DNA from: a virus
Taxonomy: Duplodnaviria > Caudoviricetes
Direction: 5' to 3' (one strand)
DNA: 64,000 nucleotides
Virus record (IMG/VR): IMGVR_UViG_3300033141_001125
Location: 671-64,670 of that record
Part shown: positions 13,238-39,313 of the stretch, one piece after another
How positions within the stretch are numbered: the stretch's first letter is position 1
How the letters are laid out: each line of letters starts with the position of its first letter
Notes under the pieces: model-generated
Told to the model about the DNA's origin: nothing
Seen by the model: the letters and a program-made list of their open reading frames with translations, nothing else
Database searches by the model: none
Translations under genes and position numbers: made by a program

Positions 13238-14056
13238 CTAGAAGATCATGGCCCCACCTGTATAGGCTTGCGGCGCTGCCATAAGCACCTTGTTGCTCCC
13301 ATCGTAATTTTGGCCGATGGTGCAATACGGAGAATTTTCACTTGTCGGCATAGCATGCCTCAATACTTCTTGTGCTGTTTTATAATCAAACACATAAAGA
13401 TGATGACGTTTTGACAGCTTTTTGATTTCTGGCTGTGATAGCTCTACAATCTCAAGATGGCTATATACAGCGTCAGATTCTTCTAGGGCTGTGTCATCGT
13501 CATAATACTCAAGAATCTCAGGATTAAGGCCGGATGCTTTATACATCACCTGGACAGCGAATGCTTTTCCAAGCTCAACACACTCTAAAACCTTTGCTAT
13601 TTCATCATTTGACTTTGCAAAAGCCCTGGAAAACTCTCTGAAAAGTTTCTTGCCAGGAAGATCGTCCAAGTCAAAAAATCCAATGATTTGGCTTTGTTTC
13701 TCTGTATCTAAACCGATCATCCCCTTTGCAATGTACAATGGCAAAACACCATCAGCAATCAAATGTTGCACGTCATCAGTGAGTTGCAACAATTTAACTC
13801 TGCTGCTTACCAATTTTGCCGTCATATTTAATTGCCGTGCAAGTTCTGCATAGCTAATTCCTTGATCATCAATGCACTTTTTGAGTGCATTTGCCTGCTC
13901 AATCTGATTCATATTTTTCATATCTAATTGTGACATCATAATAACTCCTTTGATTAGGGTTTTAAGGCTTTTGGCCTTTCGAGAACACATAAACCATGTT
14001 ATGTGTTCTGAAATGTCAAAAGTTAACTTTGCCTTGTGCATCCACATACACATCAA
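13238..14056 (-). CDS. ParB/Spo0J-like HTH protein lacking the N-terminal CTPase domain (start probably ~13940)
   Basis: 'MNQIEQANALKK...GISYAELARQLN...VSSRVKLLQL..DVQ.LI..G.L' is the ParB HTH pattern. Confidence 0.7.
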   Translation of the reverse strand: MMCMWMHKAKLTFDISEHITWFMCSRKAKSLKTLIKGVIMMSQLDMKNMNQIEQANALKKCIDDQGISYAELARQLNMTAKLVSSRVKLLQLTDDVQHLIADGVLPLYIAKGMIGLDTEKQSQIIGFFDLDDLPGKKLFREFSRAFAKSNDEIAKVLECVELGKAFAVQVMYKASGLNPEILEYYDDDTALEESDAVYSHLEIVELSQPEIKKLSKRHHLYVFDYKTAQEVLRHAMPTSENSPYCTIGQNYDGSNKVLMAAPQAYTGGAMIF

Positions 14057-17833: not shown

Positions 17834-20326
17834 TTAAAATTCGCTCATGTCAAATAGAGTCTTTTTGTTTGCTGCCACCTCAGCATAACGCATATTATTT
17901 ACCAGGATGCGGAAATAAGATTTCTTCAATTCTCCAAGTAATGCCTTGCGTCCTTCCTGCAAAGCTACGTAACCAGTCGAACCAATTCCGCCAAAGGGAT
18001 CGTAAACGATCTCACCGGGATTTGAATACAGAATGATAGCACGTCGGATAACCTCAAGTTGTAATGGACAAATGTGCTTTTCATCAAGCTTCCCATTCGC
18101 TTGTCTTTTCCCAAGCGTTCCTGTGATCTTGGATGGCCCAAGAACATCAGTTTCTCGTATATCATCCCAAAATACTGATTTCTGGAAGAAATCATCAATA
18201 TCTTGGCTCATCAATTCTGCTTCAATGAAATCTGGTAATAACTCAGCGCCAGGCCGATTGTCTGTACGGCACATTTCTGCAAAACTATTCATTTGTTCTG
18301 GCGAGGCATTGGTGAAAAACTTGTCTGGCTCAATCCATTCTGAACCAGCCCATTTGATGAAATCGTCACGTGACACCTCTCCACGCACATTTGATTTTAC
18401 TGGTACTTTGTTGTCATTGTGATGACCTTTTTTGAAAACGAGCAGTTGATCTGGGATAACCGTGCGGCAGCGCGCTGAGTCTTTCGGCAAGTCCGAAGTC
18501 AGACCCAAGCCAAAAATGTGAGAAGTAATACTTTTGGCTTGCTGGTTTTTACCAATGAACACACGCCCGCCATACCAATTGAAACCACCTTTTATAAAAG
18601 CATCAATTGTTCTGCCTGAGAAATCTCGCATACCAATGAAGCCATCCTTATTTTTCCGTGCTGGAATGTCCATAACGTGAATAACGGCATTGCGCCCTGG
18701 CATCAACACGCGATACAATTCCTTTATAAGAAAACTGAAATGCTCGAAAAATTCATCCCAATCACGGCAATTTCCAAGATCGCGTTCTGTGGGTGTGTAC
18801 GTAAAAAGCTCTGCAAATGGCTCGCTCCCATGAATTAAACCAATGCTATCAGATTTAATTCCTTTTATCGTCTCAGCTGAATCGCCAAGCATCGCTTTCC
18901 AATTCTTGCCTTCAACTATTCTTTCCTCATATTGATAACTGATTTGCGTCTTTTGACCATGTAACTCGTTCATTGAAAACATCCTTGAGGCTGTAATTAA
19001 CTCATCAATTTGTTTATTATTTTCTCTGTCTTTGTACATAAGATTGTTCCATACATCCCGCTGCGCATCTGCTATAATTGGATAGATGAAACACTCTCTT
19101 TCTTGTCCAAAGCGGTGAACACGTGCCACACCCTGCTTCCACTGTTCCCAGGAATCATCAATGCCCGCCCACACCTGAAATGATGCGTTCTGGAAGTTCA
19201 TGCCACGCGCCCCGATTTTTGGCTTAGTGACTAAGATGCGATATTTGCCATCCTGGAAATCCTCAAACGCTTGTACTTTTTCTTCAACAGACATTGAACC
19301 AGTTACCTCTGCTGCTTGATCGCCAAGCCGCTTTGATAATTCCTTGCTTTCATGGTTGCGCAAACACCACACAATACCTTGTTCATTAAGATGCTTTGTA
19401 GACGCAATTTCATAAGCTGCATCAATGCGCTGTTCCATTGTTCCTCTATATATAGCAGAGCGGCTTAATTCCCTTCTATCAATACCGTTTTTGTCTGACC
19501 CTGATTTGCCACCGATACCACCGGCTTTAGTCATAAACAGCATGCCTTTTGGCACATATCCAGCATCGATAAATCGTGGCGAAATATGTAACTTTGGCAA
19601 GTCAAAGCCCGTGTCATCATAGCCAAGATCGCTCGGCTTGCGCATTGACACACACCAAGAGGACATCCAGCGGTAGAAGTTCTCCCTACCAAGTTCTTTT
19701 AGTACCCACTTGTTATTTGATTTTTTACCTCTGTTGATGAAAAATTCGCTTCTCATCTCATCATGGCTTTTTATAATTCCGAGCACCGCAGCAATTGCGC
19801 CAATTTCATCTGTGCTGTTAGGCGCTTGCGTGGCTGAATATCCAGTTTTGTAAGGCGTATCTTTCCACATCTCACAAGCCAGTTTGAACGTAGCGCCCTC
19901 GCCTTTGAAAATGCTACTTTCATCAAAGCCAACACCCGAAAATTGATCGGGATTGAAATGCGGCATCATTTCATAATTAGTAATGTTGATACCGTTAATG
20001 ATTCCGCTACCATCTCTGGAATGATTGATTTCAATACCCATAAGATCACGCGCCATTTTAACAGTCTGCCTTACGACTGAAAGAGGAACAATTAAGACAA
20101 CTGGCGTATTAGTCATTTTATTGACCCAATACGCCCATTCTATCTGTGTGGGAGTCTTTCCTAGCCCAGTATCCGAAGCGTCTAATGCGCGTCCTTTGCG
20201 GAGCAGAAAAGTTACCTTATCTTTTTGATCTGGACGTAGTACAGGATTTAGTGATTCCTGTAAAACTTCAAATCCCGCATCCAGTACACGAAATTCTTTT
20301 GATTGTAAAAATTCAGTGTATTTCAT
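17834..20326 (-). CDS. SNF2-like helicase fused to N4/N6 DNA methyltransferase
   Basis: TGLGKT, DESS, SAT, RVHRFGQ helicase motifs; HICPLQL and DPFGGIGSTG MTase motifs. Confidence 0.88.
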   Translation of the reverse strand: MKYTEFLQSKEFRVLDAGFEVLQESLNPVLRPDQKDKVTFLLRKGRALDASDTGLGKTPTQIEWAYWVNKMTNTPVVLIVPLSVVRQTVKMARDLMGIEINHSRDGSGIINGINITNYEMMPHFNPDQFSGVGFDESSIFKGEGATFKLACEMWKDTPYKTGYSATQAPNSTDEIGAIAAVLGIIKSHDEMRSEFFINRGKKSNNKWVLKELGRENFYRWMSSWCVSMRKPSDLGYDDTGFDLPKLHISPRFIDAGYVPKGMLFMTKAGGIGGKSGSDKNGIDRRELSRSAIYRGTMEQRIDAAYEIASTKHLNEQGIVWCLRNHESKELSKRLGDQAAEVTGSMSVEEKVQAFEDFQDGKYRILVTKPKIGARGMNFQNASFQVWAGIDDSWEQWKQGVARVHRFGQERECFIYPIIADAQRDVWNNLMYKDRENNKQIDELITASRMFSMNELHGQKTQISYQYEERIVEGKNWKAMLGDSAETIKGIKSDSIGLIHGSEPFAELFTYTPTERDLGNCRDWDEFFEHFSFLIKELYRVLMPGRNAVIHVMDIPARKNKDGFIGMRDFSGRTIDAFIKGGFNWYGGRVFIGKNQQAKSITSHIFGLGLTSDLPKDSARCRTVIPDQLLVFKKGHHNDNKVPVKSNVRGEVSRDDFIKWAGSEWIEPDKFFTNASPEQMNSFAEMCRTDNRPGAELLPDFIEAELMSQDIDDFFQKSVFWDDIRETDVLGPSKITGTLGKRQANGKLDEKHICPLQLEVIRRAIILYSNPGEIVYDPFGGIGSTGYVALQEGRKALLGELKKSYFRILVNNMRYAEVAANKKTLFDMSEF

Positions 20327-20331
20327 TATAA

Positions 20332-21309
20332 TTACAAACGTCCCTCAACAAATCTCATAGGAGATAATCCATTTGTGCTAATAACATCAAAATATCCCCC
20401 TGCATCAATACCGTATCCATCAACAGATGTATTATATAGTGTTGAATAAACACTTAATATACCCTGCGGATCAACGCGCACACGTCTTATCTCGTTTCCT
20501 TTCACAAAATGCATCCATGTTCGCTCTATAATCATTGTGAAAACATATGGAGTTAACATATTTGATGATTGCGATATCCTATAATTTTCATTTATATGTC
20601 TAATCGTGACCCTTCTTGGATCACCTATTTTCAGTCCATCATTATATGAAACTTGTTTCCAGAATTCATGCGATAACTCATTGCTATATTTGAATGTAAT
20701 CATTCCCAGGGCAAACAACGATGATTTGACTAACTTCTTTTTGTTCTCTCCGAAATTGATACATCTAAGATAATCTAGTGCGTATTTTTCCCATTCAATA
20801 ACTAAATCGGCTATTATTAATGGAGTTAACATAACCGCATCACTTCTCGGTTTAAATCCAGTATAGATTTTTCTTATTGCCGCCTTCGTCCATCCTATTT
20901 CAGATTTTGATAATTGCGTTTTTCCTTCCAAATAACCCATAGATGCGTTTTGACCCCTTGGGCCACCAATGTCAATAGTTGCATAAGCGATTGATACATC
21001 ATCCATATTATCGAATGATTTAACTGACACATTACTTGCAACAGCCGTGTTTGATTTAATAACAGCAAGCAATCTGTGTTGTCCGTCTATCAAATAATAT
21101 TTATTGTCAACAAGAGCAAAACATATAACTGTTTGTTCATTATACTCGCCGATGGCAATTGAGTTACATAATTTTCTTACTTGATATATACTAACCTTTC
21201 TTTGTTTGCTATATTTATATCTATCAATCCAAAAAGTAGCCATTTCAGGTGTGATAACAACTCTTTTAACACAACTATTGCCATTATCAAATATCTCTTT
21301 GAGTTTCAT
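20332..21309 (-). CDS. ParB/Srx-like (DGQHR) domain protein, AT-rich
   Basis: 'ITPEMA...QR.VS...LIDGQHRLLAV...ID.G..R'. Confidence 0.7.
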   Translation of the reverse strand: MKLKEIFDNGNSCVKRVVITPEMATFWIDRYKYSKQRKVSIYQVRKLCNSIAIGEYNEQTVICFALVDNKYYLIDGQHRLLAVIKSNTAVASNVSVKSFDNMDDVSIAYATIDIGGPRGQNASMGYLEGKTQLSKSEIGWTKAAIRKIYTGFKPRSDAVMLTPLIIADLVIEWEKYALDYLRCINFGENKKKLVKSSLFALGMITFKYSNELSHEFWKQVSYNDGLKIGDPRRVTIRHINENYRISQSSNMLTPYVFTMIIERTWMHFVKGNEIRRVRVDPQGILSVYSTLYNTSVDGYGIDAGGYFDVISTNGLSPMRFVEGRL

Positions 21310-21383
21310 TAACTTCTCCTTATTTGAATTTTATATCTCAATTCTACTACTTAATATACCAAAACTCTAGTGACATTCATCTA

Positions 21384-23111
21384 CTAAAACCCGTATTCTA
21401 TCCTTTCGTTAATCGGTTTAAGTGACACCCCAAGCCAGAAAGCATTGCCGCTTTTTGCTCTTATGCCAATGAATCCAAGCCTGCGCCATTCATTAGCCAT
21501 TCTGTGTATGCTTTCCGGTCTGTAATTGCGTTCACTGCACCAATCTTTATAATGTGCGTACATAATATCAGACTGCAATCTTTTTGTAGTGTCAACCTTA
21601 AAATCGCTGTCATCTAAATGTACGTTACACCATTCGTTGACAAATAGCGCTGCTTTATCCGAGATAATCGACCACATTTTAGTGGAAACGCGCACCGCTG
21701 CTGGCAATTCAAAATGACCTCGGCTATCTAGTCGTTTTAATCCCTCGATAGCCCAATTGAGAATTCCAGCCCTTTCTTTTCTGATACGCCCCTTCAAAGA
21801 TACATCTTCTTTAACGCGCAATGGCGGAAATTGCACAACCTTAATACGTCTAAAGAGACCATCACCACCACCACCACCCACACGCGGAAGGCGCTCCATT
21901 GCCCATAAAATCTTGGCTACTGGTCTAAATGTTATTTGATCTTTATGTTTCCTTTCAAAGTCAACTGGCTCACCGGATATAATCGTCTTAATTATTTCAG
22001 TGCTTTGAATGTAATCCGCTGATTCCGTTGCCAGTAATAGCGTTTTTCCTGGCACGTTGACTAAAGCGAAGCGCGGATTTGTTATTAGTCTTTCTAAAGA
22101 CAACACGCCGGCCTTAACTCCTAGCATCGCTCTGATTCCCTCAATAATGGTTGACTTTCCGCTTCCGGGCTGGCCGTAAAACCATACAGCAGTCTCTAGC
22201 TCCGTGCGAGTAGTCAGACAATAACCAGCAAACTCTTGTACAAACTCTACGCTATTTTGAATAGTATCGTTCAGTGCTTGTGTAAAATTGTCACATTTTG
22301 CCGTGGGATCATAGTCATATCCGAGTCCGGTTGTGGCATAATGCTCTTTGTTGTGTGGCTCGATTTGCATTGTTTTGAGATTTAGCACACCGTTACTACA
22401 AATTAACACGCCCGCATCTTGTCTATCCCACCAATCGGCGGGTGTAAATAGCTTGCGTCTTGCCAGTGCCGATACACTTTTAACGTGTGAATCCGTGCAA
22501 GACGGCCCATATTCCTCACATTTTTCAAGGATATTCATTATTTCACGTTCAACAATATCATCTGTGACAATAGGCCAAAAGCCATGCTCATAACGCCGCC
22601 AATAACCAAGCCCGTAGAGTGTATCTGGATGATTGTCTATCCACATGTCTCTTATATTTGGCTCAGTTAGTTGCTCATTACCGTTGCCCTCTTGCGTCTG
22701 CTGAGCTTCTTTAAGAATGCGATTAAATTCACGCTTGCCAAAGTTGAACATTCTTTGACAAATGTCTTGAAGCCGTCGCGCTGCAAAAGGCTCTTTGATT
22801 TGCGTGAGTAGTTGAAATATTTCTTTTAATCCCTCGTCTCGTTCTTGGCCTTGCAAAAGAGCAACTTCGTTTATTCTAAGCTCAATATAACTTTTTGCTC
22901 TTTTAACAACACGCTCAAATTGATCTTGCGTGCCACCTTGTATAAGCCAGTCGTTAACGTCGCTTACATGCGCAGGAAGTTTAACAATTTTTAACAATGG
23001 GCCTTGTTTACTTACTATTTGTTTTATGTTAGTTTTGCCGTCGGTATCGGGTATGAGATAGAATGTCATTTTATTCCTCTGAGAATGTGTGCAATTATAT
23101 CTACTGTCCAA
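21384..23111 (-). CDS. TOPRIM C-terminal half + P4/D5-family SF3 helicase (start probably 23069)
   Basis: LIPDTDG (DxD) and DVNDW TOPRIM segments; GQPGSGKST Walker A; 'RRIKVVQF'; C-terminal winged helix. Confidence 0.88.
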   Translation of the reverse strand: MDSRYNCTHSQRNKMTFYLIPDTDGKTNIKQIVSKQGPLLKIVKLPAHVSDVNDWLIQGGTQDQFERVVKRAKSYIELRINEVALLQGQERDEGLKEIFQLLTQIKEPFAARRLQDICQRMFNFGKREFNRILKEAQQTQEGNGNEQLTEPNIRDMWIDNHPDTLYGLGYWRRYEHGFWPIVTDDIVEREIMNILEKCEEYGPSCTDSHVKSVSALARRKLFTPADWWDRQDAGVLICSNGVLNLKTMQIEPHNKEHYATTGLGYDYDPTAKCDNFTQALNDTIQNSVEFVQEFAGYCLTTRTELETAVWFYGQPGSGKSTIIEGIRAMLGVKAGVLSLERLITNPRFALVNVPGKTLLLATESADYIQSTEIIKTIISGEPVDFERKHKDQITFRPVAKILWAMERLPRVGGGGGDGLFRRIKVVQFPPLRVKEDVSLKGRIRKERAGILNWAIEGLKRLDSRGHFELPAAVRVSTKMWSIISDKAALFVNEWCNVHLDDSDFKVDTTKRLQSDIMYAHYKDWCSERNYRPESIHRMANEWRRLGFIGIRAKSGNAFWLGVSLKPINERIEYGF

Positions 23112-23968
23112 GCGTTTCCAAGCATCTTGTAACGCTGCGTCCTTGACATCATTCTGTTTATTCGTGTTGGATGCCGAACTAATGTATAATTATCTGGAAT
23201 TGTTTGCAGCCTTTCACACTCAATTGGATGAATGTATCTTGTTTTACCATTATCGTTTATTCCAAAGCATCGCTGATTGCTATATCCTTTATAATGCGAA
23301 GCCTCTAAAGTCTGCATTTTAACATTTGTATCTTTTGAGTACTCGAAGTATTTTGTTGCGCGCCGTGCATCATGGAATATCCAATCAAATGACTTTTTTG
23401 TATAATAGAAAACACCATCCGCATTATCAATTTGTATATCGCTCCAAAATGCTTTTGTATCTATCGGTTGCATAATATTAAGCATATTTGTCCAGTACAG
23501 CCTTTTTCTATTTTGCGCAGATACCAATGCGCTGTTAATCACAATCGGTTGTACATCAAGTATTTTTGATATAATGTCTTGATACCTTTGAGACATACGC
23601 ACGTTTTCTAATAAGAAATGCTGTGGTTGACAGTATTTAAGTATATCCGCAAAATCGAAAAATAGCTTACTGCGTGGATCATCAAAATTAAGCCTTTTAC
23701 CAGCGCAACTGAATCCCTGACACGGACTACCGCCCATCAATAAGTCAATCGGTGGCAAGTTCCAATTTTGCCAATTGGTTATATCACCAAGCTGAATTGT
23801 ATTTGGATAATGATGCTGCGTTACAGCTAATGTGTATTTATCAATTTCACTTGCAAAATAATTATCATATTTGATACCAGCGCGTTGTAATGCTAATTGA
23901 CCACAACTGATACCGTCAAACAAACTTAACACATTCATTTGATGGCTTCCTTGAGTGATGCTCCGCAC
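23066..23968 (-). CDS. DNA (cytosine-5)-methyltransferase (start probably 23938)
   Basis: LSLFDG, GGSPCQGFS, ENV, QNRKR, ERLQ, LGNAW motifs. Confidence 0.92.
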   Translation of the reverse strand: MRSITQGSHQMNVLSLFDGISCGQLALQRAGIKYDNYFASEIDKYTLAVTQHHYPNTIQLGDITNWQNWNLPPIDLLMGGSPCQGFSCAGKRLNFDDPRSKLFFDFADILKYCQPQHFLLENVRMSQRYQDIISKILDVQPIVINSALVSAQNRKRLYWTNMLNIMQPIDTKAFWSDIQIDNADGVFYYTKKSFDWIFHDARRATKYFEYSKDTNVKMQTLEASHYKGYSNQRCFGINDNGKTRYIHPIECERLQTIPDNYTLVRHPTRINRMMSRTQRYKMLGNAWTVDIIAHILRGIK

Positions 23969-24738
23969 TCCCCGATTGCTGCCCTATCCCATTGCCCCAA
24001 AGAAATAGCATCTGCTTGTCCTTCAACAATATAAAATTCTTTTGCCTTTGGGTGATACAACCAATTATAATAAAGTTGCTTTTTACCAGGTAGATTGCGA
24101 TGTGTTTTTCCTTCAATACTTCTTGCTGCAAAATATTGCACGCGCACACCTTTAATGTGAGGATAAACTAAATAGCCCTGCGGAGATAGTTTGTAACCAT
24201 CACGCAACGAGCAGAAGTCAAGCCCGCTTGATGAAATAACACCTTTTGCAGAAACACCGGCTTTGAGTAAGCGCTTTCTCAACTCTTGATCTGATGCAGC
24301 AAAACCAAGCCTAGCGCGCTTGATAGTTGTGTCAAGCCAGCCTCTTGACCTGGCATATTCAAGGCATATTTTACCCTCATCACTCCATAGCCGCCTCTCA
24401 TAAAAAGAGGCAACAACTTCAAGAGCATTTTCTCTTATTCGTTGTTGCTGTAATTGTTTTTTGTTCTTTCTGGATGTCTGCAAGCCAGCTCGCAAAGCAA
24501 GCTCGTCTAATGCCGTAAGAAAGTCAACTTTTTGATAGTGTTGCCACACGTCAAAAATGTCAAACTGCTTGCAGCATACAAAACAATATGCGCCGTCCGC
24601 ATATATTGCCATTGAAGCATTATGATCATCGTGATCAAAGCACGTGGTTGCCTTTCCTAGCTGTAAACTTTCACCTTTTAATTCTGAAAACAGATCAATA
24701 AAAGACATTCTCGATTTTATATCATCGGTAAGTGGCAT
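23935..24738 (-). CDS. DnaG-like primase N-terminal part (CHC2 Zn finger + TOPRIM N-terminal half)
   Basis: CFDHDD...CFVC, 'YARSRG', 'YFAARS', IVEGQADAIS; ends before the DxD motif. Confidence 0.85.
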   Translation of the reverse strand: MPLTDDIKSRMSFIDLFSELKGESLQLGKATTCFDHDDHNASMAIYADGAYCFVCCKQFDIFDVWQHYQKVDFLTALDELALRAGLQTSRKNKKQLQQQRIRENALEVVASFYERRLWSDEGKICLEYARSRGWLDTTIKRARLGFAASDQELRKRLLKAGVSAKGVISSSGLDFCSLRDGYKLSPQGYLVYPHIKGVRVQYFAARSIEGKTHRNLPGKKQLYYNWLYHPKAKEFYIVEGQADAISLGQWDRAAIGECGASLKEAIK

Positions 24739-24814
24739 ATTTCCGCCTTTGAGGATTTCCTATAAGTGTAGCATAGATATATTAAGAAGAAAAGTCAGAA
24801 CTAAATACAACTTA

Positions 24815-25285
24815 TCAGTATTCTTCCCAGCCGTGCTTTCCGCCACTCAATTTTTGGTAGTTCATCTCTGTTAGTTCGTCAAGTGAGCAATCAAACATAG
24901 CCAAAATGCTGGATGGACAAGTTAAGCAATAATTTATGAATGAGTGATTATCAATATTAAAATATCCAACAACCGAAGAATAATAACATAATTTTATACA
25001 CAGTGTTTGCAGATCGCCATTATCATAATCTTGCATTTTCCGCAGTTTAACACCACGAATATATGCAACAATCCGCAAATACCACCAGTAATCGCCTAGT
25101 TCCTCAAGCATTGAATCACGGCTTACTGGAATCTCATATTTGTATGCAGCTTTCTTAACCAACTCCGTGATCTCGCCGGCTTCACCGACAAGGCCTAACA
25201 ATGCTGGCATAGCATCATTGTGTAGTGGATGATCTTTCGGATACCACGTTCTAAGCGCAAATTCTTGATGTTTGTCAGGCTTCAC
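24815..25285 (-). CDS. MazG-like NTP pyrophosphohydrolase
   Basis: GLVGEAGE...EELGD..WY...N..KL. Confidence 0.85.
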   Translation of the reverse strand: MKPDKHQEFALRTWYPKDHPLHNDAMPALLGLVGEAGEITELVKKAAYKYEIPVSRDSMLEELGDYWWYLRIVAYIRGVKLRKMQDYDNGDLQTLCIKLCYYSSVVGYFNIDNHSFINYCLTCPSSILAMFDCSLDELTEMNYQKLSGGKHGWEEY

Positions 25286-34189: not shown

Positions 34190-34535
34190 ATTTAGGAAAG
34201 ACACAAGCAATAGTTTAATTTGCGCATCAGCGGTTTTTGAGTTACGTACTTATGGCAGCATGGGCATAGAATACAAAGAAATGCGTGTGCGCTGGCATCC
34301 AGATATTGGAATTGCTATTGATGAAAGAGACGATGACAATTTTAAGTGCATCAAGAATCATGCGGAGCCAAAAGATGTTGAAGATATACTCCCAAAGAAA
34401 AATGATTTCGGATATGACTGGACATACGCAAACTTTGTATTAGCAATGACATTTTTTGGAGAAGGCTATAAATTGGGCAATGAAATCGGTTATCGCCGCG
34501 GATTAAAACAAGGGAGATTGCAATGCAACAGGTAA
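34176..34535 (+). CDS. hypothetical protein
   Basis: GAGGA RBS before MWGIEF. Confidence 0.6.
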   Translation: MWGIEFRKDTSNSLICASAVFELRTYGSMGIEYKEMRVRWHPDIGIAIDERDDDNFKCIKNHAEPKDVEDILPKKNDFGYDWTYANFVLAMTFFGEGYKLGNEIGYRRGLKQGRLQCNR

Positions 34536-35551
34536 CATTTAACAGTGTATGCGCACAAGGAACGATTAAGAACGGCCTCAGTCTAGGCCAATACTCAAGA
34601 GGCCGTCACACACAACATCCGCACCAAATAAATTGGGGAATTGGTAATTGGATGGTTGGAAACGGCGTAGAGCATTACGCCAATGTTATCCAGCGGCAGG
34701 ACTTCAATCGCCTGTCAGAAGGCAATGAGGCAATTGCCTTGTATTATACCGCGCTTGGTCTTTTGCTTGGGCCTGGCTATCACGATATTCGAGGATTGAC
34801 TCTCGGCTTGCCAGTTGACATATATACAGATGACGAAAAAGCAAAACGCACAATGCGCAATGTTGGAAAATTCCTGAGAGGCGAACATTCATTTATGCTT
34901 GACGGTGAAGAAATTACCATAAATGTTCAGAGTATCGCCAAGTGCCCTCAGCCAGTCGGAGCTTACACCACATTTCTATACCAGCAACGACAATTTCCAG
35001 ACGGCCAAATGTGGGCCGTCGCTGATGGTGGATTCAACACGCTGGATGTGTTTGCAGTTGCGTATATCGCAGGTCATCCACGAGTGTATCATAAATACAC
35101 CGCTGGAACTAACCTGGGTATGGCTGAGGCTTGCCGTCATTTTATGCAATCGTTCAAACAATTAACAAGCAGGGACATTACTTTACAGCAAGCTGATATG
35201 TACCTGCGTGAAAAGAAGCCAGAAGTAACATATATTGATCACGGCACATTTGATCTTACATCAATAAAAAATGTTGCATTAGAATCACTTTCCAGTCGTG
35301 TGATTACTTTTTTGCGTAATCAGTGGGGCGAACCATTGCCTTTTGCAGGACTGATTTTTGCTGGTGGAGAATTTGAGGCACTGGGTCAGCACGTTGTGAC
35401 CAAATATCCAGGTGCATTTGTGTTGGATGATCCAGTTATGGCAATTGCTACAGGGCTGTATTATCAATCTACGATGGTTAAATCATGGAAGGGTGGCTTG
35501 GTTGTTGGCCTTGATCCTGGGTTTGGAGCAATCAAGGCCGTCACAGAATGA
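34523..35551 (+). CDS. parM: ParM/StbA-family actin-like ATPase, circularly permuted
   Basis: FNSV, GLP, PQPVGA, DGGFNT (phosphate-2), AGG, DDPVMAIATG; phosphate-1 motif VGLDPGFGAIKAV at the C-terminus. Confidence 0.88.
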   Translation: MQQVTFNSVCAQGTIKNGLSLGQYSRGRHTQHPHQINWGIGNWMVGNGVEHYANVIQRQDFNRLSEGNEAIALYYTALGLLLGPGYHDIRGLTLGLPVDIYTDDEKAKRTMRNVGKFLRGEHSFMLDGEEITINVQSIAKCPQPVGAYTTFLYQQRQFPDGQMWAVADGGFNTLDVFAVAYIAGHPRVYHKYTAGTNLGMAEACRHFMQSFKQLTSRDITLQQADMYLREKKPEVTYIDHGTFDLTSIKNVALESLSSRVITFLRNQWGEPLPFAGLIFAGGEFEALGQHVVTKYPGAFVLDDPVMAIATGLYYQSTMVKSWKGGLVVGLDPGFGAIKAVTE

Positions 35552-37867: not shown

Positions 37868-39313
37868 GTGCCCCTTGCAAAAAAGAATGCCATTTTTAAC
37901 ACTTTAGACATAGGCGCACTTTCAGACATACAACACAGGAACGTGAAAATGGATACAAAAGAAACCTATTTAATAGAGTTCGCTCACAATATTATTGCCA
38001 GCCTGACTGATCCTGAGATTTGCGGCAGGAAGAATATTGTTGCGCGCCCGATCAATGGCCGGCTTGCAGAAGTCACGCCGGGGCCACGCGCTGGCGCTGT
38101 CACATTACTGGATACAAATTACAGCAATCATCTAATAGAAACTTTCAGAAAACACGATGGCTTGTTAGCTCATAAGCTTTTGCCAAACAACTGGAAGAGA
38201 AAAGTAGATCATGTTTCTGTTTATGGCTTCCGTGGCTGTGTAAGGGTCGAAGCGGCTTGGCCTAAGGCTATGCAAAAAATGGATGTTACCGTTTCGCTGA
38301 GTCGCATTGACAAAAATCCTTACAAGAATGGTAGATTTCTAATTGGTAAAAATGAGCGTGGTGCGGACATCACGCTTGGCCTAGATGACGTGACACCAAA
38401 CTTTCTTTTTGCCGGTCTGACTGGAAGCGGCAAAACCTGGGCTATGCGCTCGGTGATTGGTCAATTGTCACGTTACATAGACACGCAAACAATATTGATT
38501 GACGGAAAATATGGCGATGGGCTTGGTTGTTTGAATGGTATCCGGGGACAAATAGGGCCTCTTGCTGTGGACATCGAAAACGCAAAAAACGCACTGGCTT
38601 GGGTGATCAATGAGATGCACACCAGATATACAAAAGTAGCACATCTGACACCACAGGCCAGAAAAGCAACTTTTGATGAAATGTCACGCATTGTAGTAGT
38701 TATTGATGAAGTGCAAGAGTTCACAAACGATCTTGCTGCCGCAGCAATGATTAGTAAGTTGGTTTCTCAGTGCCGTGGTGCAAAAATTTATTGCTTGATT
38801 GGCACACAGCATCCACGTCAAGATGCTTTTGGTGATACGAGCGCCAAGCGTAATTTAGTAGGCAGGATCGTGCTACTTGTTGAAGACGAAATCGCATCTC
38901 ACGTTGCGCTTGGCTCCTGGACTCCGAAGGCACATGAGGTACTACTCGGAAAAGGGGATGCTTATGCAAAAGTGCCTGGCGCAATTCAGCGCGTCCAGAC
39001 CGCTTACATTCCAGAAGATGACCTGCTTTCTTTGGTTGGTGGTCAACCGCTACTAAAAGAATGGCCGTTGTTCAATCCAGACATTCTGGGATTCTATCCT
39101 GAGAGGATGGGCCGTCCGCCAGTGCTTTTTACTATGCAAGAATTGGCAATTTCCGCAAGGTGCGCATCATTAAATGAACGCCGCATTATACTTGATAGAC
39201 ACCTACAGAAACATACCGGAAAAAGTATGGGCGTTCCAAGATTGCGCAAACTCTTAGAGAAAGGTAAAGAACTTGATGCAGAGTTAGGAGTATTAAACTA
39301 TGGAGGCGAATAA
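37868..39313 (+). CDS. FtsK/SpoIIIE (TraB-like) ATPase
   Basis: GLTGSGKT Walker A, LIDGK, EMHTRY, VVVIDE Walker B, GTQHP, LGKGD. Confidence 0.9.
   Translation: MPLAKKNAIFNTLDIGALSDIQHRNVKMDTKETYLIEFAHNIIASLTDPEICGRKNIVARPINGRLAEVTPGPRAGAVTLLDTNYSNHLIETFRKHDGLLAHKLLPNNWKRKVDHVSVYGFRGCVRVEAAWPKAMQKMDVTVSLSRIDKNPYKNGRFLIGKNERGADITLGLDDVTPNFLFAGLTGSGKTWAMRSVIGQLSRYIDTQTILIDGKYGDGLGCLNGIRGQIGPLAVDIENAKNALAWVINEMHTRYTKVAHLTPQARKATFDEMSRIVVVIDEVQEFTNDLAAAAMISKLVSQCRGAKIYCLIGTQHPRQDAFGDTSAKRNLVGRIVLLVEDEIASHVALGSWTPKAHEVLLGKGDAYAKVPGAIQRVQTAYIPEDDLLSLVGGQPLLKEWPLFNPDILGFYPERMGRPPVLFTMQELAISARCASLNERRIILDRHLQKHTGKSMGVPRLRKLLEKGKELDAELGVLNYGGE

Follow-up and report, generated by a model that had tools for sequence, protein, structure and literature searches.

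The 64,000-nucleotide stretch of DNA analysed here, referred to as the window, covers positions 671 to 64,670 of IMG/VR virus record IMGVR_UViG_3300033141_001125 (Duplodnaviria; Caudoviricetes) and is nearly all of that record, a complete 64,670-base genome with direct terminal repeats. On its minus strand three open reading frames (ORFs) follow one another without a gap: the N-terminal part of a DnaG-type primase, a C5 cytosine DNA methyltransferase, and the primase's C-terminal part continuing into a superfamily 3 (SF3) helicase. Each of the three is in a different reading frame. The TOPRIM motif is halved between two ORFs that differ in frame and have 873 bases between them, and no single polypeptide carries both halves. 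Sequence comparison and structural modelling make it likely that the phage produces its DnaG-type primase/SF3 helicase as two chains that reassemble. The features of the locus are as follows.

23935..24738, minus strand: primase N-part, 267 amino acids (aa), with CHC2 zinc ribbon, DnaG N-subdomain and TOPRIM beta1-alpha1-beta2
23946..23952, minus strand: Shine-Dalgarno-like AAGGAAG, putatively functional, 7 bases ahead of the methyltransferase ATG and within the end of the N-part gene
23935..23940, minus strand: junction 1, AAATGA, 4-base overlap of the N-part stop with the methyltransferase ATG
23066..23938, minus strand: C5 cytosine DNA methyltransferase, intact, 290 aa (PF00145, TIGR00675, phrog_116)
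23094..23121, minus strand: promoter-like TTGGAA-16-TATAAT (10 of 12), about 25 bases ahead of the C-part ATG
23074..23080, minus strand: Shine-Dalgarno-like AGAGGAA, putatively functional, 4 bases ahead of the C-part ATG and within the end of the methyltransferase gene
23066..23071, minus strand: junction 2, AAATGA, 4-base overlap of the methyltransferase stop with the C-part ATG
21384..23069, minus strand: primase C-part and helicase, 561 aa, with TOPRIM beta3/DxD, helical linker, D5_N and P4-type SF3 helicase

Sequence content of the two primase parts

The N-part bears near its end the TOPRIM Glu motif, IVEGQADAIS (residues 237-246), and shortly after it GASLKEAIK (259-267), which is followed directly by TGA. 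The C-part opens with the half that is missing there, MTFYLIPDTDG, and runs on into the helicase. A preliminary description of the locus had claimed both of these points, and also that an intact dcm-like gene separates the halves; all three hold. The C-terminus of the N-part (LKEAIK) corresponds to a shortened helix alpha2. The zinc ribbon of the N-part spans C33 to C56 (CFDHDDH at 33-39, CFVCC at 52-56) and matches Zn_ribbon_DnaG (PF01807) over residues 31-91 with 25.6 bits, above the cut-off of 24.9; the match to the dnaG model TIGR01391 is partial, with an E-value of 5.3e-20. In the C-part, the DxD motif is found in YLIPDTDG (residues 4-11; D8 and D10) and a further acidic motif in SDVNDW (36-41; D37 and N39). 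The remainder displays a Walker A motif (GQPGSGKS, 299-306) and matches Pfam D5_N (1e-13), DUF5906 (4e-14) and Pox_D5 (1.1e-4). It scores 158.9 bits, against a cut-off of 108.7, with TIGR01613, the P4-family primase C-terminal domain, as befits a P4-type SF3 helicase. Residues 13-551 of the C-part align on positions 251-764 of the 772 in phrog_6088.

The acidic features of TOPRIM, as reportedly set out by Aravind et al. in 1998, are a Glu after beta1 and DxD after beta3. In the window these residues are divided between the chains, with the catalytic Glu, E239, on chain 1, and D8/D10 together with D37/N39 on chain 2. E239 and G240 are invariant across a 30-row alignment of the N-part; across 25 aligned rows of the C-part D37 never varies, and D8, G11 and N39 hardly do. 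Neither Toprim_2 nor Prim-Pol finds a match at E<=1 anywhere in the phage genome. Domain models miss a TOPRIM that is split, and such primases would therefore appear in annotations as a pair of genes that are partial or seem unrelated.

Junctions between the three genes

The TGA closing the N-part falls within the methyltransferase's own ATGAAT (Met-Asn), and the homologous methyltransferases P0130 and P0133 likewise begin with Met-Asn. The inserted gene thus provides the stop of the upstream primase part and the start of the downstream one. The ORF listing stretches both downstream ORFs to earlier GTG or TTG codons; the ATG starts, which match those of the homologues, are used here. Were the 869 bases between the two copies of AAATGA taken out, AAA-TGA would remain and the C-part would not be in frame, just as the preliminary description stated.

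The same description drew attention to the AAATGA shared by both junctions. The hexanucleotide is indeed present at both, but it is not special to them. A crude ORF map of the window shows ATGA at the end of 19 of 96 ORFs, six of which end in AAATGA; the sequences around the two junctions agree at only 21 of 64 bases, and no repeat beyond AAATGA was found there. AAATGA is therefore the usual way in which genes of this phage abut, rather than a target-site duplication, and its presence at both junctions is no evidence of a specific insertion site. The promoter-like site TTGGAA-16-TATAAT is a possible separate promoter of the C-part; promoter-like sites number 21 in the region, against 14.0 (standard deviation 3.7) in shuffled sequences, which favours this one weakly.

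Relatives of the primase parts

Of 8,000 candidates scored in a protein search with the C-part, 320 matched at E<=0.001. The uninterrupted relative that had been proposed for aligning the junction is found in P0003, an unsplit protein of 827 aa, encoded on a 67,013-bp contig, that is collinear end to end with the N-part and C-part together (267+561 aa) and has about 6 more residues at the break. The zinc ribbon and DnaG N-domain of P0003 precede its helicase part; it is 48% identical to the N-part and about 58-59% identical to the C-part, with 100% of the C-part query covered. Another match, P0002 (562 aa, on a 4,408-bp contig, about 59-60% identical to the C-part), starts with MNYYIIPDRDG and retains, like the C-part of the window, a canonical DxD. 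The search with the N-part found eight proteins of nearly its length, P0122 and P0123 among them. Both of these, from contigs of 1,075 and 1,039 bp respectively, are exactly 267 aa long, 64-65% identical to the N-part and end in K, as does the N-part of the window. The split is thus seen at the same residue in relatives of 60-65% identity, in P0122 and P0123 for the N-part and in P0002 for the C-part.

The unsplit form is widespread. An exhaustive search of representatives gave 4,185 proteins at E<=0.001, and 82 of 149 among the matches listed are at least 780 aa long; TOPRIM continues across the position of the break in 40 of 40 long relatives aligned. The maximum-likelihood tree of 14 N-regions places the three split N-parts in one clade (support 95/92), sister to unsplit P0003 (100/99). 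The distance of about 0.6 substitutions per site from the N-part of the window to P0122 and P0123 implies that the split has been kept through a long divergence. A split kept in this way, together with conserved catalytic residues, is not the picture expected of decay or of an assembly error.

At the metal site, the split enzymes look more canonical (DxD) than their unsplit sister P0003, which has DSK. Among viral contigs, a search with the C-part itself found nothing; with an alignment of the C-part it gave eight loci, each of them a helicase-only match at 26-44%, and with the N-part alignment a single zinc-ribbon match of 25 residues. No relative of the N-part was found by alignment in metagenome contigs or genome contigs, a degenerate DNA pattern for the start motif of the C-part had no match in metagenome or viral contigs, and the matches given by tblastn against phages and plasmids were all below 32% identity.

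Position of the break in the fold

The fold of the DnaG RNA-polymerase domain was examined on unsplit P0003 rather than on the N-part of the window. Over residues 1-390 the P0003 model made by AlphaFold has a predicted local distance difference test score (pLDDT) of 76-98 by block and can be trusted there; its fold is DnaG-like, the closest structural matches being DnaG primases (2au3, E 8.8e-18; 4edg and 1dd9, TMt 0.71). In sequence, P0003 covers profile positions 7-412 of the 414 in TIGR01391. The TOPRIM of the model consists of beta1 (233-237), alpha1 (240-248), beta2 (253-255), alpha2 (263-269) and beta3 (274-277). The break in the window maps onto the end of the helix at 263-269 and the loop ahead of the strand that begins at 274. 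With the N-part ending in a shortened alpha2 and the C-part opening at beta3, the cut lies in the beta2-beta3 connection and parts the Glu from the DxD.

Structure prediction of the two halves together, which had also been suggested at the outset, was carried out on residues 1-267 of the N-part and residues 1-140 of the C-part, with our own alignments. The complex has a median ipSAE of 0.84, and the highest-scoring of three controls has 0.00; among 80 solved complexes 58 attain the mark applied to this score, as do 2 among 110 mismatched pairs. Contacts agree between runs at 94% or more, and partner pLDDT is at least 82. The predicted interface comprises residues 231-239 and 242-252 of chain 1 and residues 1-8, 10-11 and 37-43 of chain 2. 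We read these modelled contacts as a pairing of beta1 with beta3 that would set the acidic residues side by side. Likeness to solved folds is a possible reason for the high score, and the pass shows that the modelled halves resemble an intact TOPRIM, not that these particular chains bind.

A second split lineage

A further primase, P0314 (315 aa), stops directly after beta2 (...AVALLGANL). Its 90% cluster has seven members of 314-323 aa on contigs of up to 217,618 bp, which excludes a contig end as the reason for the stop. The 2,585-base contig L013, from an Anaerolineales genome bin, carries a copy 73% identical to P0314 (L013:146-2583). Its N-part ORF ends at a TGA at 1286-1288, 28 aa past the Glu motif, and the next cistron begins either with the ATG at 1285, which overlaps this stop (ATGA), or with an in-frame ATG at 1306, 21 bases on and behind AGGAGA. 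This second cistron encodes alpha2, IVLALDSDQAGK (DSDQAG) and DANEYL; it matches the second half of Toprim models only, and Pfam finds nothing else there. No gene, and hence no methyltransferase, lies between the two cistrons of L013.

The arrangement is rare among the loci scanned: an ORF with the Glu motif is present in 36 of 38, and only in L013 does it stop 28 residues past the motif, while 34 of the others run on for 310-371 residues and one reaches the contig end. A 45-row tree built by a quick method places P0314 and L013 beside the unsplit P0297 (support 95), far from the clade of the window, and the split state changes twice on it. The split of P0314 and L013 is accordingly independent of that in the window. 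Judged by these sequences, TOPRIM has been cut in the beta2-beta3 connection at least twice, once around a methyltransferase and once without a gene in between.

Three other primase N-terminal proteins, P0383 (272 aa, on a 6,937-bp contig), P0320 and P0257, stop 10-25 residues past TOPRIM beta2; they may be further split forms or frameshift errors. P0273 was rejected as a split form, being a fragment of the 1039-aa P0399, and so were P0331, P0347 and P0382, which look frameshifted.

The intervening methyltransferase

The gene between the halves qualifies by its sequence as a member of the C5 cytosine DNA methyltransferase family. It matches PF00145 (6.3e-42; 144.6 bits against a cut-off of 22), TIGR00675 (147.5 bits against 100.65) and phrog_116 (4.6e-69). 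FDGISCG (7-13), GSPCQGFS (70-77, with the Pro-Cys), ENV (111-113), QNRKR (142-146), RYIHPIECERLQTIPDNYT (234-252) and GNAWTV (274-279) make up what we take to be the full conserved set of C5 motifs, including the catalytic Pro-Cys and a motif IX-like stretch. All of its Pfam, PHROG and NCBIfam matches are to DNA methyltransferases, except for one weak match to phrog_864 ('DNA primase'). No homing endonuclease gene is present between the halves, and no further ORF fits into the 873 bases.

The gene has a guanine-plus-cytosine (G+C) content of 0.361, against a mean of 0.423 (standard deviation 0.032) over 42 ORFs of at least 450 bases, and its flanks have 0.417 and 0.426. All 8,000 of 8,000 scored candidates match it, the best at 65% identity. 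Among 85 rows from annotated phages (lists of 25 and 60 that share their top record), the matches fall under stand-alone methyltransferase or hypothetical genes and never under a primase; two neighbourhoods were inspected besides. Its phage homologues often sit among early or accessory genes. Because its relatives stand alone in other phages, the methyltransferase looks like a wandering accessory gene. The preliminary description likened it to a mobile insertion. Low G+C and stand-alone relatives make this plausible as far as sequence can tell, but the second lineage is split without any insert. The split may therefore predate the methyltransferase, which may have entered at a cistron boundary that already existed, in a state like that of L013.

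The profile phrog_864 (1,064 positions) is matched by the helicase at 285-588 and by the C5 methyltransferase at 672-746, which suggests that fused helicase-methyltransferase proteins exist in phages. In the window itself, 17834..20326 on the minus strand encodes an 830-aa SNF2-type helicase (Helicase_C, phrog_16) fused to an N6/N4 DNA methyltransferase domain (PF01555); this second methyltransferase lies two genes downstream of the split primase. A separate observation concerns homologues of the inserted gene in Pelagibacter, Croceibacter and Roseobacter phages (OR420744.1, OR420751.1, KC688701.1, AP013541.1, MW514246.1), which match in two pieces over 1.1-1.4 kb rather than 0.87 kb. Both pieces are within one 1,440-base coding sequence in HTVC134P, so these methyltransferases hold a large internal insertion.

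A probable two-chain primase and the alternatives

The preliminary description offered a two-chain primase with a composite active site as one of its interpretations, and the kept split, the kept residues, the collinearity with P0003 and the complex model all point the same way. From chain 1 (267 aa) would come the zinc ribbon, the RNA-polymerase domain's N-subdomain and the opening half of TOPRIM, beta1-alpha1-beta2, which includes the catalytic Glu. Beta3 with the DxD, beta4, the acidic motif DVNDW and the helicase would come from chain 2 (561 aa). Beta3 of chain 2 is predicted to pair with chain 1's beta1, and a single sheet with a single acidic metal site would thereby be restored where the chains meet. 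We infer a single message for the three cistrons, with both downstream starts reached by termination-reinitiation at ATGA behind the Shine-Dalgarno-like sequences. Such coupling would match the output of the two primase chains to each other, and the methyltransferase would be made together with the replication proteins. The methyltransferase itself would be an ordinary accessory gene lodged between the cistrons, probably for protection against restriction.

Several observations weigh against this interpretation. The match of the N-part to DNAG_N reaches only 19.7 bits, under the Pfam cut-off of 26. The split clade rests on only three N-parts and two C-parts, and the C-part search of viral contigs found no locus of close relatives. 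The connection at the break is about 6 residues shorter than that of P0003, and alpha2 is truncated. Unsplit P0003 has DSK in place of DxD (residues ~279-283), and other relatives have DTN, SND or EQN; since the family tolerates such departures, conservation of these residues is suggestive of activity but no proof of it. The complex model unites halves of a fold that has been solved many times, and its pass may come from those structures; its calibration is only rough, own alignments having been used.

Some of these observations would also fit a loss of primase function, with the C-part kept as a helicase or initiator, the N-part as a zinc-ribbon DNA-binding protein, and priming left to host DnaG. 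No DNA polymerase was recognised among the phage proteins scanned, and host replication would be needed anyway; helicase-only relatives of 420-520 aa are common among the matches of the C-part; alpha2 is truncated in the window; and P0003 lacks the second Asp of the DxD even in the unsplit state. A dead enzyme would, however, hardly be expected to keep E239, D8, D10, D37 and N39 in every split member seen, at 60-65% identity, or to retain on the C-part about 60 residues of TOPRIM that are superfluous for a bare helicase. The exact length of 267 aa in both relatives of the N-part, and the same arrangement kept in a second lineage, speak in the same direction. We regard loss of primase function as unlikely.

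A broader proposal makes the methyltransferase more than a passenger: either it cooperates with the two primase chains in a replication-coupled methylation module, or its place within an essential enzyme gene is a means, requiring no nuclease, by which an accessory gene becomes almost impossible to delete. Its chances appear rather slim. The second version would turn a C5 methyltransferase into a selfish element that fractures genes. On either version TOPRIM would have in its beta2-beta3 connection a site at which natural splits recur and a DnaG primase is turned into a heterodimer.

The narrower suggestion that the methyltransferase is a working third partner, tying methylation to replication, or is anchored by its position in an essential gene, seems to us quite improbable. 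It draws on the tight 4-base coupling at both junctions, on the hint of helicase-methyltransferase fusions in phrog_864 and on the helicase fused to an N6/N4 methyltransferase downstream. Coupling by ATGA is, however, how genes of this phage generally abut (19 of 96 ORFs in the crude map), the second split lineage has no methyltransferase, and a primase annotation accounts for 0 of the 85 rows from annotated phages.

Rejoining of the parts at the level of RNA or translation, the other interpretation in the preliminary description, finds no support. Ribosomal bypass is said to occur in a split TOPRIM enzyme, T4 gene 60, and junction 2 (A-AAA-TGA) would by its sequence allow tRNA-Lys to re-pair in the -1 frame and continue into ATG-ACA. 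Junction 1 (C-AAA-TGA), on the other hand, is not slippery, and passage from the N-part to the C-part would require a skip of 869 bases across frames, over an insert that is taken up in full by an intact ORF having a natural start of its own. Group I and group II introns were rejected, there being no Rfam match at E<=1 on either strand of 21000-25200, and so was a split intein, as the parts abut on the P0003 alignment without extra residues (267+561 aa against 827 aa) and leave no room for intein halves. Rejoining by intron, intein, bypass or frameshifting is thus highly improbable. Equally remote is a chimeric contig that placed the methyltransferase within an unbroken primase gene. The record was assembled from a metagenome, but it represents a complete genome and has terminal repeats; relatives that come independently from other sources are complete ORFs that stop or start at the same residues, both junctions have clean 4-base overlaps with Shine-Dalgarno-like sequences, and about 6 residues of the ancestral connection are gone, which a simple chimera would not explain.

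Other genes of the phage

Directly after the helicase, 20332..21309 on the minus strand encodes a 325-aa ORF with the lowest G+C of the long ORFs (0.338; third-position G+C, GC3, 0.264). It has no Pfam match, matches only phrog_5931 (function not known), and contains a DGQHR-like motif, which presumably recalls ParB/DUF262-type nucleases. The genome encodes a tape measure protein, a major head protein and a terminase of a tailed phage. It also contains, at 13238..14056 (minus strand), 34523..35551 (plus strand) and 37868..39313 (plus strand), a ParB-HTH protein, a partition protein (phrog_691) and an FtsK/SpoIIIE-like protein. Such genes in the genome of a tailed phage may reflect a plasmid-like prophage lifestyle.

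Comparison with known systems

The unsplit fusions of DnaG primase and SF3 helicase, represented by P0003 and about 80 long representatives, share with the window the order of zinc ribbon, RNA-polymerase domain with TOPRIM, linker and helicase. They are single polypeptides with a continuous TOPRIM (40 of 40), whereas the TOPRIM of the window is distributed over two chains. P0314 and L013 resemble the window in having a DnaG-type primase split in the beta2-beta3 connection into two cistrons with an ATGA overlap. They differ in that the break comes before alpha2 rather than after it, no gene intervenes, and the remainder of the C-part is not the helicase of the window, Pfam having matched the TOPRIM half only.

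The closest precedent among known enzymes is the type II topoisomerase of T4. Its TOPRIM is divided over gp39 and gp60, with mobA, a putative HNH homing endonuclease gene, in between, and the separate chains are active (PMC11461880, PMC2988022); some 70 residues added at the break are proposed to serve as an assembly bracket (PMC11461880). In the window, too, a phage replication enzyme is broken within TOPRIM with gene order kept and another gene in between. The enzyme, however, is a DnaG-type primase rather than a type IIA topoisomerase, the insert is a C5 methyltransferase, and the break region falls about 6 residues short of the unsplit relative and carries no extra bracket.

Aeh1 NrdA and phage 25 gp43 (43A/43B) are further split phage enzymes described as active, and the start/stop overlaps of Aeh1 nrdA and phage 25 gene 43 are taken there to suggest translational coupling (PMC2988022). 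The likeness to the window consists in an essential phage enzyme gene divided into two cistrons with start/stop overlaps. The difference lies in the enzymes concerned, in what separates the cistrons, a homing endonuclease (mobE in Aeh1) or an untranslated spacer in those phages and a methyltransferase here, and in the kind of evidence, since activity has been shown for those enzymes and the window is known from sequence.

The 'fractured genes' of marine phage metagenomes described by Dassa et al. in 2009 keep their halves in the same locus and orientation around a free-standing gene, and the model given for them has the 5' end of the invader provide the upstream stop and its 3' end the downstream Met codon (PMC2677866). 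The insert in the window furnishes an upstream stop and a downstream Met exactly as proposed. The loci of Dassa et al. combine split inteins with a homing endonuclease, whereas the window has no room for an intein, and the only Pfam domain of its insert is a C5 methyltransferase. Searched listings of openly accessible articles, not of their supplementary files, showed no DnaG-type primase with a divided TOPRIM and no case in which a methyltransferase gene intervenes.

Natural splits within catalytic domains are rare, and they reveal at which points a fold tolerates a cut without losing its ability to assemble. The present case parts the TOPRIM Glu and DxD onto two primase chains; the split has been kept for long, and a similar one arose again elsewhere. 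By its sequence the window is a case of phage gene fracture that would yield a two-chain enzyme, with the methyltransferase in between as its new feature. Phage gene fracture would thereby extend beyond homing endonucleases and inteins, to loci in which a methyltransferase separates the parts or, as in the second lineage, no gene at all.

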